A stretch of DNA of 64,000 nt from assembly GCA_028687545.1 (NCBI GenBank), contig JAQTZZ010000010.1, positions 50,118-114,117 of the forward strand. Direction: 5' to 3'. Within the stretch, counting starts at the first letter, position 1, and each line of letters starts with the position of its first letter. Shown here one piece after another: positions 28,372 through 33,038 of this stretch. The stretch comes from Candidatus Wallbacteria bacterium. Its GTDB lineage: Bacteria; Muiribacteriota; JAQTZZ01. The translations under genes and the position numbers were made by a program. The notes beneath the pieces are model-generated. The model was not told where the DNA came from, searched no databases, and saw only the letters and a list, made by a program, of their open reading frames with translations.

Positions 28372-28672
28372 TGTTAAAGATGCCGCTTAAAGCAAATGGC
28401 ATAGACCAATGTGGAATGCTTCGGTGCTTCACAGATCCCAAGATGATTGAGCTTTCCATGGCAGCTCTGCAGCCCGAAACAAATATCCCCAAATTCTAAC
28501 CGGTTTAAAGGACATCAAGCTGTTCAGAGATGTCCTGGCCGCTGACGACGAGATAATCAGCGAAAGGCTGAGAAGGCTTTCAGCCATTCTTAAGGAAATG
28601 GGGTTTTAAAGGATTTATGGTCGGAAAAGCTTGAAGGTATAGTTTTTTATTAAGACGGGGAGGGCAATAAGC

Positions 28673-28991
28673 ATGAAAGTAACGGTATTCAACGGAAGCC
28701 CTAAAGCAAGAAACAGCAATACCGATGTTACTGTTCAAGCATTTTTATGTGGCGCAAAAAGGGCAGGAGCTGAAACTGAAACAGTTTACTTTGGAGATTT
28801 ACCGTAATTGTGGCATGCTGTTGAAAAAGGAAGATGCCAAAATAAAAAGCAAGGTTGCGTTGTACCTTGAACATGTCAATGCCGCCGGGTTTGAAATGAT
28901 TTCCCAAGATAAGGTAAGCGTGGATACGATTAGGGAATTGGAAAAAGAATTGGTTTCTTTGGATGAGTATTTGGAAATATTGAGAATGTAA
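28673..28991 (+). pseudogene. Disrupted NAD(P)H-dependent FMN reductase (flavodoxin-like) gene
   Basis: MKVTVFNGSPKARNSNTDVTVQAFLCGAKRAGAETETVYFGDLP then a stop at about 28807. Track ORF 28725-28991 continues in another frame. Confidence 0.4.
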
Positions 28992-29064
28992 ACTTTCTGA
29001 AGCGGATCGCTACCGTTCCAATTCGCTGCTGACAAGCACTTTATCCGCAGCCCGTGCTATTTAA

Positions 29065-29113
29065 CGGCTCTCATCCATTCCCTATCTTCAAATCTGTCTT
29101 CGATCAGAAAATG
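29065..29113. repeat. Third copy (partial) of the TfoX 3'-end repeat
   Basis: ctcatccattccctatcttcaaatctgtcttcgatcagaaaat versus ctgatccattcacggtcttcaaacctgtcttcgatcagaaaat at about 36040-36085. Confidence 0.45.
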
Positions 29114-29328
29114 GGCGGAAAAATATCTTCATTTCAAACCCGAATTGGATCTTAATTATCCCGGACAGTGGGATCAGGAAAAATCACGTCAGGCGGACAA
29201 CCCCAACCATGCTGATTTGACAGTCACGTTTTTTTGCTGCTTGAATTTCATGAAGTCCCGTCTGAACGGTAGATAGGGCACAATTAAAAATTCCCGGAAA
29301 TTCACCATTCACAAATTTGATAATGTTA

Positions 29329-29356
29329 TTGACAACACTTCCCGGCACTGTATAAT
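29329..29356 (+). promoter_or_regulatory. Near-consensus sigma70-type promoter
   Basis: TTGACA-16 nt-TATAAT, about 160 nt upstream of the 29517 ATG. Confidence 0.6.
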
Positions 29357-29364
29357 AAAAATAT

Positions 29365-29516
29365 GCTACTTCGGATCGTTCATTCTGTCCTTATGATAAT
29401 GCGCTGCCCGGACACGGGCGGCATTCAGCGTTCGTAGTTCGGGACCATCCAAAACATTTCACAGATTTACGCTCTTAAGTTCGTTTAACTTTTCCGGCAT
29501 TATCAGCAGGAGGTAA
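29365..29516 (+). promoter_or_regulatory. Structured 5' leader of the homocysteine operon. Riboswitch or attenuator candidate.
   Basis: About 150-nt untranslated leader with a GC-rich hairpin (gcugcccg-gaca-cgggcggc at about 29403-29422). A 9-nt segment (ugauaaugc) can pair with gcauuauca immediately 5' of the AGGAGGT RBS. Confidence 0.4.
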
Positions 29517-30899
29517 ATGTCCATGGCTAAATCGATAGAAGAAATTAATGATAAGATCGCCAAGAAAACAGTCAAGGTGCTTACAGCAGAAGAAATGACC
29601 AGACTGGTCGCGGAAACCGGACCTGAAAAAGCTGCCGCGCAGGTCGATGTCGTCACTACAGGAACTTTCGGCGCCATGTGCTCGTCGGGGATGTGGTTCA
29701 ATACCGGCCATTCAGACCCGCCGATCAAAATGACCAAAGTCTGGCTGAATGATGTCGAAGCCTATACCGGCCTAGCTGCCGTTGACGGCTATATCGGAGC
29801 AACTCAGATGTCTGAGACGAGAGGAATGAAATATGGCGGAGCGCATGTCATAGAAGACCTGATTAACGGAAAACCGGTCATTCTGCGGGCAGTGGCCTAT
29901 GGAACAGACTGCTATCCCCGCAAGGAAATCGTGACTGAAATCACCCTGGCAGACCTGAATCAGGCCCTGATGTTCAATCCCCGCAACGCCTATCAGCGTT
30001 ACAACGCTGCCGCCAACACAGGTGCCAAAACTCTCTATACTTACATGGGTAAACTTTTACCCAGTGTTCAAAACGCAACCTATTCCGGTGCAGGCGAACT
30101 TTCTCCCATCAACAATGACCCTGATTTCAGGACTATCGGCATCGGCACGCGTATTTTTCTCAACGGAGCCCGCGGACACATAGTAGGCAGCGGTACTCAG
30201 CATAACCCTGATACCGGATTTTCCACCCTGATGGTGCAGGGTAATGTCAAGGAGATGCTTACGGAATACGTAAGGGCAGCCGTATTCAAGAATTACGGCT
30301 GCACGCTGTATGTCGGCATCGGTGTGCCGATTCCGGTGCTCGACGCAGATATCGCCAAACGGACAGGCATTGCCAACCGCGACCTCACGGTGGATGTGCT
30401 CGACTACAGCAAGCCAACCAGGAATCGACCGGCGCTTGGAAAAGTGACCTATGAAGAACTCAAGTCAGGCAATGTGATTATAGACGGAAAAAAGGTGCGT
30501 ACTGCTCCGATTTCCAGCTATGCCAAGGCAAAGAAGATCGCAGGCACTCTGAAGCAATGGATCGAGAAAGGCGAATTTCTGCTCAGTCAGACCTCGGAAC
30601 GCCTGTCAAAGAAAAGCGTTTACAAGCCTATGATCCAGCAGGAACCGGCAGGGTTTTCAAGTCCCAGGACAATCGACATCACCGGGGCTCTGAAGGACAA
30701 AGTGTCTAAAGACAACAGGCTCTGCGTAGAATGCGGGCTCTGCATCGGAGTTTGCAGCAATGGAGCTTACACCCGTGATCCGGACTGGCACATCCATCTT
30801 GACTCCTCTCGCTGTGTTTCCTGCGGCCAGTGCCGCGATATCTGCCCTTTCGACGCGATTGCCTTGAAGGAGGGAGAGGTATGCGTGAAGAACTGTTGA
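29517..30899 (+). CDS. COG1900/DUF39 homocysteine-biosynthesis protein fused to a C-terminal 2x[4Fe-4S] ferredoxin domain
   Basis: About 380-aa DUF39-like body, then CVECGLCIGVCSNGA and CVSCGQCRDICPFDA ferredoxin motifs. AGGAGGT RBS. The aspartate kinase context supports the call. Confidence 0.55.
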   Translation: MSMAKSIEEINDKIAKKTVKVLTAEEMTRLVAETGPEKAAAQVDVVTTGTFGAMCSSGMWFNTGHSDPPIKMTKVWLNDVEAYTGLAAVDGYIGATQMSETRGMKYGGAHVIEDLINGKPVILRAVAYGTDCYPRKEIVTEITLADLNQALMFNPRNAYQRYNAAANTGAKTLYTYMGKLLPSVQNATYSGAGELSPINNDPDFRTIGIGTRIFLNGARGHIVGSGTQHNPDTGFSTLMVQGNVKEMLTEYVRAAVFKNYGCTLYVGIGVPIPVLDADIAKRTGIANRDLTVDVLDYSKPTRNRPALGKVTYEELKSGNVIIDGKKVRTAPISSYAKAKKIAGTLKQWIEKGEFLLSQTSERLSKKSVYKPMIQQEPAGFSSPRTIDITGALKDKVSKDNRLCVECGLCIGVCSNGAYTRDPDWHIHLDSSRCVSCGQCRDICPFDAIALKEGEVCVKNC

Positions 30900-31597
30900 A
30901 AATCTATGAAACCATTGCCCGGGTTACTGCCGAGGAAGAACGCTTTATCCGCATCGCTGAAGCGGAGATTATTCTCAGGCGGAATGAATTGACCGCCTAT
31001 ATTTCCCAGGACCCGTATTTTCGCACCACACTTATGAGTCATTCAGTGAGTGAAAACGCTCCGGAGATAATCAAACGCATGACAAAAGCTACTGCCGGAT
31101 TCGGCATCGGCCCGATGGCTGCAGTGGCAGGTGCGATTGCGGAATACGCGGTGCGAGCTATGGCTGCAGCCGGTTCACGCTATGCTATCGTGGACAATGG
31201 GGGAGACATCGCCATGCTCATCGACAGGCCGGTCACAGTCGGAATTTTCACCGGTGCGGCCGGAGTGCGGTCGTTCGGCCTGCGCTTTGAACCCAGGCCC
31301 GGCCTGATCGGTATCTGTACCTCTTCGGGCAGGATCGGCCATTCGCTCAGTTTCGGTTGCACTGATGCGGCAACCGTTATTTCCGGTGATACAATCCTGG
31401 CTGATGCCGCAGCCACTGCATTGGGCAATGCAATCAAGACAAAGGAGCCCGCGTCGATGAAGCAGGCGATTGACAGCATGCTGGTCGAAGGAATCGAAGG
31501 AATGATCGCAGTGGTGGACGACTTAGCAGCATTTGGAGGCATTGTTCCAGCCATAGTGCCTGTTAAACTACCTCTGGAAAAAATTGCAGCCGCCTGA
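30881..31597 (+). CDS. UPF0280/ApbE-like (COG2122) family protein
   Basis: Likely start MREELLKIYE with AGGAGG 6 nt upstream (the track start at GTG 30830 is less likely). Gly/Ala-rich ApbE-like core GIGPMAAVAGAIAEYAV. Confidence 0.45.
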   Translation: MREELLKIYETIARVTAEEERFIRIAEAEIILRRNELTAYISQDPYFRTTLMSHSVSENAPEIIKRMTKATAGFGIGPMAAVAGAIAEYAVRAMAAAGSRYAIVDNGGDIAMLIDRPVTVGIFTGAAGVRSFGLRFEPRPGLIGICTSSGRIGHSLSFGCTDAATVISGDTILADAAATALGNAIKTKEPASMKQAIDSMLVEGIEGMIAVVDDLAAFGGIVPAIVPVKLPLEKIAAA

Positions 31598-31667
31598 TCA
31601 GAGAAAACCGCTTACACGAACTAAACAGTACCGGCCTGAAAATGCGTGGCTGGAAAGGAGAAAAAAT

Positions 31668-33038
31668 ATGAAAGTCATGAAATTCGGAGGCGGCTGCCTA
31701 AAAGATGCCGCTGATTTTATCCGGACTGCTGATATTATCAGAAATGACACTGACGAGACCATTGTCGTAGTATCGGCTGTGTCCGGAGTGACCGATCTGC
31801 TTCTCTCAGGAATTCAGACAGCCCTCGACTCGGAACACAATGTTCCGGGACTCCTCTCGAACCTGCTTTCAGTTCATGAGAACATAGTCAAATCATGCAT
31901 CCGCAAACCCAAAGAACGCCTCCAAGTGATGAAAGCCATTGAACAACGGATTGACAATCTTAAGAGACAATTTTTCGGTGCAGCTTATTCCGGTGAGATC
32001 AGCGCTGCGCTCAAAGCCGTGATTTTAAGTTACGGAGAAAGGTTTTCCGCTTTGATTCTGTCCGGCGTTTTGAACGACATCGGCTTGGATGCTGAGGCCA
32101 TGGAAGCCGACAAAATAGGGATGATCACAGATGAGTCCTGTGAAAATGCCACAATGATTCCGGAACTGGTCAGAAAGGAGATGAGGGAGCAACTGATCCA
32201 GGCAGTCGGCTGCGGAAGAATATCGGTTGTGACCGGCTTTTTCGGCCGATCTGAAACCGGAAAGGTGACGACTTTCGGCCGCAACGGATCTGATTATTCC
32301 GCAGCAGTCGTTGCTTATGCCGTTAACGCGGATTCCCTGGAGATCTGGAAGGATGTGGATGGCTTCATGACCGCAGACCCGAAGATGGTGAAGAATGCCG
32401 GTCGCATCGACCGGCTGTCTTACTACGAAGCAGCGGAACTTTCGTATTTCGGAGCCAAAATCCTGCATCCCCGTACTGTGGAACCGCTGGTGGAGCTTGG
32501 AACGCCCCTGTACATCAAAAATGTCGGTAAACCGGACAGCAACGGTACCTTAATAGGCGCGCCCGGTTATACAAGGGAGGATATAATCAAAAGCGTTACC
32601 TGCAGCCGCAAGATGGCTGTATTGCGCATCCAGGGACCCGGCATCGGGTTCAAACCAGGCATCATCAGCGAAATCGGCCGCCTGATCGCAGGCGCAGGGA
32701 TCAACATCTATTCGGTCATCACTTCTCAAACCTGTATCAATCTGCTTGTTGACAAGGGAGACTCGAGTAAGGGAATCGAAGTTCTGTCCCCTCTTTGCGG
32801 GGGGGTGATTGAGAAAATCGACCTGCAGGACAGGATCGCCTTGATCGGAGCCGTGGGAGAAGGCCTGATCCACACACCTGGTCTGGCTGCGCGCATGTTC
32901 ACAGTTGTGGCCAGGGAACACGTCAATATTCAGATGATCTCGGCTGGTGCATCAGACATTGCCTACTACTTCATTGTGGACGAGGAAGACGTAGAAAAGG
33001 CAATCATTGCCATACATGGAGAATTCTTTTGCGTATGA
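31668..33038 (+). CDS. lysC: Aspartate kinase
   Basis: MKVMKFGG start after an AAGGAG RBS. GRNGSDYSAAVVA and DVDGFMTADP motifs. Two C-terminal ACT-like repeats. Confidence 0.85.
   Translation: MKVMKFGGGCLKDAADFIRTADIIRNDTDETIVVVSAVSGVTDLLLSGIQTALDSEHNVPGLLSNLLSVHENIVKSCIRKPKERLQVMKAIEQRIDNLKRQFFGAAYSGEISAALKAVILSYGERFSALILSGVLNDIGLDAEAMEADKIGMITDESCENATMIPELVRKEMREQLIQAVGCGRISVVTGFFGRSETGKVTTFGRNGSDYSAAVVAYAVNADSLEIWKDVDGFMTADPKMVKNAGRIDRLSYYEAAELSYFGAKILHPRTVEPLVELGTPLYIKNVGKPDSNGTLIGAPGYTREDIIKSVTCSRKMAVLRIQGPGIGFKPGIISEIGRLIAGAGINIYSVITSQTCINLLVDKGDSSKGIEVLSPLCGGVIEKIDLQDRIALIGAVGEGLIHTPGLAARMFTVVAREHVNIQMISAGASDIAYYFIVDEEDVEKAIIAIHGEFFCV

Follow-up and report, generated by a model that had tools for sequence, protein, structure and literature searches.

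Ribosome-based attenuation has been described for the amino acids tryptophan, histidine, leucine, threonine, isoleucine/valine and phenylalanine, and more recently for cysteine. For methionine genes the textbook controls are SAM riboswitches, T-boxes and protein repressors, and full-text searches of the literature returned no methionine-specific leader peptide. The closest described system is provided by the polycysteine leaderless small open reading frames (sORFs) of mycobacteria. According to the published account, ribosomes that stall on these sORFs stand in the way of an mRNA structure which would otherwise hide a downstream ribosome-binding site, and the loci of one pathway that carry such leaders form a 'ribulon' (10.1101/834739). 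The genes DUF39 (COG1900) and COG2122 have in turn been tied to the synthesis of homocysteine from aspartate semialdehyde by genetic work in Desulfovibrio and Methanosarcina (PMC5764234). A full-text search disclosed no paper linking COG1900 to a riboswitch.

The window, that is the entire 64,000-nucleotide stretch of Candidatus Wallbacteria DNA analysed here, contains an operon of this kind preceded by a leader of about 155–160 nt, counted from promoter to main gene (Table 1). The leader is probably a ribosome-mediated attenuator that senses the supply of Met-tRNA, and hence of methionine, a reading to which we assign a probability of about 0.68 on the strength of sequence comparison and RNA modelling. 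The promoter had been called near-consensus in the first-pass annotation and is in fact perfect. Only 2 promoter-like sites are present in the 2-kb region, against 2.5 expected by chance, and this is the only perfect one; a promoter of comparable kind occupies the same place in 56/61 homologous leaders. The stretch directly upstream of the promoter, 28372–29328, is without a long ORF. Between 29357 and 29516 the + strand contains no ORF of at least 40 codons, and a 164-nt leader folds better than its shuffled versions (−45.6 kcal/mol, z = −2.56). The leader is long, as described, at ∼155 nt, and it contains a short ORF of its own.

Table 1. Coordinates of the leader elements and of the genes behind them in the window
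Feature	Position	Strand	Details
Promoter, sigma-70 type	29329–29356	+	TTGACA 29329–29334, 16-nt spacer, TATAAT 29351–29356; 12/12 matches
Leader ORF	29363–29437	+	24 codons plus TAG, peptide MLLRIVHSVLMIMRCPDTGGIQRS; ATG 7 nt beyond the end of the −10 box
Long-range helix, 5′ arm	29388–29402	+	Covers the putative sensor codons and the UCCU upstream of them; inverted repeat, 15 nt, 87% complementary
Putative sensor codons, ATG ATA ATG (Met-Ile-Met)	29393–29401	+	Both ATGs invariant, 61/61 leaders
Local GC-rich hairpin	29403–29422	+	−16.2 kcal/mol, z = −5.4
Conserved hairpin	29407–29443	+	5′ arm 29407–29420, 3′ arm 29429–29443, one bulge; −20.5 kcal/mol, z = −5.15
Leader spacer, C-rich and G-poor	29444–29496	+	Separates the hairpin from the ribosome-binding region
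Long-range helix, 3′ arm	29497–29511	+	Overlaps the Shine-Dalgarno AGGAGG, 29508–29513
COG1900/DUF39 (HcyBio) gene with 2x[4Fe-4S] ferredoxin domain	29523–30899	+	PF01837, E = 5.9e-146, and Fer4; protein P0001, 458 aa
COG2122/ApbE-like gene	30830–31597	+	Pfam
Aspartate kinase gene	31584–33038	+	Pfam

Two details of the gene calls deserve mention. The COG1900 ORF opens at ATG 29517, a mere 3 nt past the AGGAGG, and an in-frame ATG at 29523 lies at a spacing of 9 nt, which makes the latter the likelier start and the one called. The COG2122-like ORF, which opens at GTG 30830, shares its first 70 nt with the end of the COG1900 gene, and its true start is probably located further downstream.

No ortholog closer to the window COG1900 protein was found: the nearest proteins anywhere in the collections searched are at most 62% identical, and 60 genomes of the window's phylum contain no COG1900 gene, with matches confined to ferredoxin domains. 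An alignment of leaders from close relatives was therefore impossible and the clade around another locus, L031, was used instead. In its leader this locus, identical in sequence to L066 and L091, has a 26-nt stretch in common with the window, consisting of ATGATAATGCG, three bases and CCCGNACACGGG. A search of relatives of the L031 genome (G061) with its COG1900 protein delivered 30 loci, nearly all of which exhibit the same motif upstream. Judging from the names on close proteins, the leader-bearing clade is probably Aminicenantes-like. A covariance model, R1, was built from 27 leaders and 61 leaders were then collected. The family is defined by the codons ATG-ATH-ATG, followed after 5 nt by a hairpin whose base is of the CCCGG/CCGGG type and then by a pyrimidine-rich 3′ flank. 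The full order of elements is promoter, start codon, ORF, Met-Ile-Met, 5-nt spacer, hairpin, pyrimidine-rich flank, C-rich spacer and Shine-Dalgarno sequence. In a search of its own genome, the window matches R1 at 29389–29455 with 51.7 bits (E = 1.6e-10), a score that is partly due to construction, as the window is among the 27 model sequences. The element is present in 62 of the 151 genomes sampled from the clade (∼40%), usually in one copy and sometimes in two or three.

Five kinds of methionine-pathway gene follow the element: COG1900-Fer, Asd, Cys_Met_Meta_PP (metY-like), MetH and a MetX-like alpha/beta hydrolase. The loci without COG1900 comprise eight with aspartate-semialdehyde dehydrogenase and three with PLP enzymes of Cys/Met metabolism, besides those with B12-dependent methionine synthase and with the MetX-like protein. 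Inspection of 20 extra element loci uncovered no gene of any other kind behind the leader. In this respect the first-pass reading holds, a conserved cis-regulatory element being associated with the methionine and homocysteine genes.

One conserved feature of the family is the reading frame. The ATG at 29363 lies at the canonical transcription start as predicted from the perfect −10 box, so that a leaderless ORF is expected; no Shine-Dalgarno sequence is visible ahead of the start codon. Of the leaders with a promoter score of at least 9 of 12, 55/56 have their first ATG past the −10 box in phase with the Met codons and no stop codon in between, the chance expectation for frame agreement alone being one third. 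The start codon mostly lies 6–16 nt past the −10 box, and the leader of L173 displays an in-frame GTG start 9 nt past it. The N-terminal peptides, 8–32 codons in length, are unrelated and fall into ∼20 dissimilar versions when grouped by eye. Such diversity in sequence and length means that shared descent cannot explain the conservation of the frame.

At the end of these disparate peptides the Met codons are invariant and the codon between them reads ATA (47 leaders), its synonym ATC (11), ACA (two) or ATG (one). The variant triplets, in L105, L147 and L144, encode Met-Thr-Met (ATGACAATG) and Met-Met-Met (ATGATGATG). The middle residues encountered, Ile, Thr and Met, all belong to the aspartate family of amino acids. 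The stop codon usually falls in the apical loop of the hairpin, nine codons past the motif in 35/61 leaders; in the window the TAG (29435–29437) is located inside the 3′ arm of the conserved hairpin. In 10 leaders TGA follows immediately after Met-Ile-Met, which indicates that no downstream peptide is needed. An in-frame ORF that contains codons for the amino acid made by the operon and is kept in relatives is the hallmark of a leader-peptide attenuator, and such an ORF is what these leaders harbour.

The second conserved component is the hairpin. The GC-rich hairpin pointed out in the first-pass annotation is real and corresponds to the local structure at 29403–29422. In most relatives it is not conserved as a hairpin, and it is the larger structure at 29407–29443 that is conserved instead; the two are mutually exclusive. 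The base of the conserved hairpin lies exactly 5 nt past the Met-Ile-Met codons in 27/27 leaders first examined, with energies of −20 to −32 kcal/mol. This base is conserved in sequence (CCCGG/CCGGG type), and the top varies freely. Across the 61 leaders 87.6% of cells are paired, and double changes amount to 53 cells compared to 22.5 in shuffles, a value reached in 0/500 shuffles. When the partners are slid by one column, pairing falls to 38–55%. Examples of covarying arms are CCCGGAC/GUUCGGG, CCCUGAU/AUCAGGG and CCGAGC/GCUCGG. This count was made on the model-fitted alignment, which leans towards the model. If the leaders are aligned plainly with MAFFT, five of the sequences fall one column out of register, for which reason the outer helix taken by itself gives no significant signal; RNAalifold, applied to the core of the MAFFT alignment, also missed the hairpin.

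A long-range pairing links the codons to the ribosome-binding site. The first-pass annotation had noted a 9-nt segment able to pair just 5′ of this site. The segment exists and is longer than described, and a strand able to sequester the ribosome-binding region is thus present, as the proposed layout demands; the two-strand duplex of 29377–29403 with 29490–29526 has an energy of −20 kcal/mol. In the mean of 60 leaders, the pairing predicted for the ribosome-binding region peaks sharply on Met-Ile-Met (0.46 and 0.35 versus at most 0.02 nearby), with a second small peak just 3′ of the hairpin. In 27/60 leaders these codons are the dominant partner. The complementary arm of the window is located 5′ of the Shine-Dalgarno sequence and not over the start codon as elsewhere, a difference in position which suggests that the pairing has been kept by selection rather than descent.

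These observations may be combined in the following scheme. Transcription would start at or beside ATG 29363 and a ribosome would translate the leader ORF of 24 codons, in which the sensing site would consist of two elongator Met codons, one on each side of an Ile codon. The stable hairpin, whose base is 5 nt downstream, would meet the mRNA entrance of the decoding ribosome and probably slow it: with the Ile codon or the second Met codon in the P site, the hairpin base would be ∼9–12 nt ahead, at that entrance. If the supply of Met-tRNA, perhaps also of Ile-tRNA, runs short, the ribosome would dwell on Met-Ile-Met and cover 29388–29402, leaving 29497–29511 unpaired and the Shine-Dalgarno sequence free, and the homocysteine operon would be translated. 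When methionine is plentiful, the ribosome would reach the TAG in the hairpin and leave; the leader would then refold and the operon would be shut down. The output could consist of translational unmasking, with Rho-dependent termination on the C-rich spacer as an alternative or additional step. The sensor part of this scheme is well supported, and we infer the stalling, the readout of Met-tRNA charging and the output step from the sequence.

Several points count against the attenuator. The sensor consists of only two Met codons; to our knowledge two codons, the number of Trp codons in trpL, is the minimum in known systems. A shortage of methionine would also limit initiation on the leader ORF itself. 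A further point concerns unmasking as the output, which thermodynamic modelling of the window does not predict. In the largest groups of leaders, a simulated ribosome placed on the codons raises the accessibility of the ribosome-binding site from about 0.1–0.2 to about 0.45–0.54. In the window the change is from 0.23 to 0.26 only, and the opening energy in a 218-nt context is 11.4–11.9 kcal/mol with the ribosome on the codons versus 12.0 kcal/mol without it. The modest change in the window model is attributable to a weak local hairpin and to partners in the coding region that take over. Furthermore, pairing of the ribosome-binding site with the Met codons is not predicted in about half of the leaders (for instance L097/L098, L099–L103, L109 and L112), so that the output mechanism is either not uniform or not understood.

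Three-segment alternative pairings are observed in the leaders of L097–L103. In L099–L102 a third segment, ∼35 nt past the hairpin, is a perfect 12-nt complement of the 5′ arm of the hairpin (CCGAGCACAGGG and CCCUGUGCUCGG in L100). The normal 3′ arm, whose CUCCU motif resembles an anti-Shine-Dalgarno sequence, is in competition with this segment.

The C-rich spacer invites a different view of the output, in which the sensor is the same and Rho would load on the spacer once the leader ribosome has departed, and would stop transcription; a ribosome halted at the Met codons would reshape the hairpin and thereby prevent Rho from loading. Over 59 leaders the spacer contains on average 32% C and 9% G, compared to 28% and 27% in the surrounding loci, a C-rich and G-poor composition like that of Rho-utilisation sites. 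C exceeds G in 57/59 leaders and is more than twice as abundant in 46/59, which makes this feature more general among the leaders than pairing with the ribosome-binding site. The window spacer, measured over 54 nt (about 29449–29502), contains 24% C and 11% G. No terminator-like site was found on the + strand between 28500 and 30500. The lack of an intrinsic terminator suits Rho; it also counts among the points against the attenuator and sets the window leader apart from classical transcriptional attenuators. In the leader of L097 a candidate intrinsic terminator (UUCGGGA/UCCCGAA followed by UUU) was considered and set aside, as it gives the wrong regulatory sign. The spacers are however short (33–70 nt in the examples listed), a stalled ribosome would sit at least 45 nt upstream of the spacer, which makes the link indirect, and the low G content could merely serve to keep the spacer unstructured. 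Output through Rho instead of unmasking is regarded as unlikely.

Besides tRNA shortage, a ribosome may halt in response to a ligand, as known from TnaC, SpeFL and the short Erm leader motifs. Here a nascent chain ending in Met-Ile-Met would stall the ribosome only with a small molecule such as methionine or SAM bound in the tunnel or the peptidyl-transferase centre, and the regulatory logic would be inverted or otherwise different. Motifs of three to four residues are known to suffice for drug-dependent arrest in Erm leaders, and the 10 leaders that end in Met-Ile-Met plus stop recall TnaC-type sensors, which act at termination. An arrest peptide is nevertheless hard to reconcile with 8 to 32 preceding codons whose residues are unrelated between groups and with a middle residue that may be Ile, Thr or Met. 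In the window, moreover, high methionine would expose the ribosome-binding site, the wrong sign for a biosynthetic operon. On this evidence arrest of this type appears quite improbable.

The first-pass annotation had suspected a riboswitch, possibly responsive to SAM or SAH. Rfam 15, run over the whole window at gathering score, detects no SAM/SAH riboswitch, T-box or other family anywhere in it, and no family appears between 29200 and 29620 at E≤10. The leaders of 40 related loci are likewise without a match at gathering score, as are eight of these leaders at E≤1. In those eight, a stop codon comes right behind Met-Ile-Met and no SAM-I riboswitch fused to the leader was detected, and no match to SAM-I (RF00162) was found in the whole genome. 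The leader consequently belongs to no known riboswitch class. The sole Rfam matches at the related loci are two TPP riboswitches (76 bits; L164:46–150 on the − strand and L174:3090–3194 on the + strand), ∼2.7 kb downstream of leader and asd and unrelated to either. SAM-I is present in 27–41 of the same 151 genomes (27 above the cut-off), at other loci, and none of its matches coincides with an R1 match in the 151 genomes. The presence of both at different loci of the same genomes indicates two distinct, coexisting systems.

A new riboswitch class would require the hairpin and the conserved AUGAUAAUG strand to bind SAM, SAH or methionine directly and to sequester the ribosome-binding site. Its position before methionine genes is that of SAM riboswitches, the conserved strand is able to pair with the ribosome-binding region and the hairpin base is conserved in sequence. 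Yet no Rfam match emerges at any threshold tried, and conservation of structure is limited to one hairpin, the top of which varies freely, without multi-helix junction or pseudoknot, which is too little for a ligand pocket. Nor would a riboswitch account for a first ATG that is in frame and open almost without exception, or for the fact that the variable base of the conserved strand is the third position of a codon (ATA/ATC). The conserved 9 nt are the Met-Ile-Met codons of the leader ORF, and it is this small, conserved in-frame ORF, an outcome the first-pass annotation had itself named as fatal to a riboswitch, that explains the region. A riboswitch as the sensor is accordingly very unlikely. 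Least credible of all is a structured leader with a small ORF that senses no amino acid and acts in mRNA stability, as a constitutive translation enhancer or as a site for a protein or small RNA: the absence of a switch in the window modelling is in its favour, but it leaves unexplained both the fixed 5-nt spacing of the hairpin and the invariance of Met codons before five kinds of methionine-pathway gene and, in the 20 extra loci, nothing else.

How did the leader come to reside in this genome? Among 87 genomes sampled from the window's phylum, this is the only one with the COG1900-ferredoxin gene and with a solid R1 match, in single copy; three weak matches (23–26 bits) were treated as chance. 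Neither blastn, nhmmer nor the covariance model detected a second copy in the genome itself, and a 16-bit match on its contig C90 was dismissed, as it lies on the opposite strand of what appears by eye to be coding sequence. COG1900 loci from other phyla (L032–L093) gave just two R1 matches, both at chance level (L046 with 14.4 bits and L128, from the window's own genome, with 16.1 bits). In a tree of 81 COG1900 proteins, a quick tree with rows sampled around the clade of interest, the window protein falls inside a clade with an SH-aLRT support of 97. The leader is present in 44/45 members of this clade, the remaining one being cut off by a contig end. The nesting of the window protein in a leader-bearing clade suggests that gene and leader were probably acquired together by horizontal transfer. 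One may go further and picture a horizontally mobile 'methionine ribulon', in which a gauge of tRNA charging with two Met codons in a leaderless mini-ORF, sensitised by a hairpin that acts as a roadblock exactly at the ribosome's mRNA entrance, governs at least five methionine-pathway gene families in one bacterial clade and has moved with its gene to another phylum; this wider proposal is put forward tentatively, as a possibility that we hold to be doubtful in its entirety.

If the attenuator reading is true, a conserved Met-codon leader with a fixed hairpin geometry, found in ∼40% of the clade genomes sampled and before five pathway genes, would fill the methionine gap in the list of amino acids given at the outset. 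It would also serve as a compact system for testing how small a number of codons is enough for sensing, and whether the time a ribosome dwells is tuned by a hairpin downstream. Annotation would benefit in the case of the DUF39 homocysteine pathway, which has been little studied, and the window would probably provide an example of a regulatory leader that moves between phyla together with its gene.

The leader shares features with several known systems. Like trpL, hisL, thrL, leuL, pheL and ilvL, it comprises a short ORF with regulatory codons followed by alternative RNA pairings. The two Trp codons of trpL and the mixture of Thr and Ile codons of thrL both find a parallel in Met-Ile-Met. Unlike the classical attenuators, the window leader has neither an intrinsic terminator nor a visible Shine-Dalgarno sequence before the ORF. 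The translational attenuation of ermC and cat resembles the proposed mechanism in that a paused ribosome on a leader ORF opens a helix hiding the ribosome-binding site. In those systems, however, a drug brings about the pause, which is also peptide-dependent, whereas here a shortage of tRNA is proposed and the peptide is unconserved save for Met-Ile-Met. With SAM-I the element has in common its place in the 5′ leader of methionine-pathway genes, which it would control, and the clade of genomes in which it occurs. It differs in matching SAM-I neither in sequence nor in structure and in occupying other loci; SAM-I senses SAM by RNA alone, and the element considered here has a conserved frame that is predicted to be translated.

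The nearest likeness remains that to the mycobacterial polycysteine sORFs. As there, an ORF at the 5′ end of the operon transcript, here predicted to be leaderless or nearly so, contains codons for the amino acid that is the end product, and in both cases several loci of one pathway carry the element, some genomes here having two or three copies. As regards sequestration, the complementarity is present in the window, the pairing dominates in just under half of the leaders modelled, and simulated occupancy leaves the window's ribosome-binding site closed. Set against the same description, the methionine leader is distinguished by two Met codons flanking Ile in place of a run of cysteine codons, by a hairpin at a fixed distance of 5 nt and by its occurrence in other phyla.
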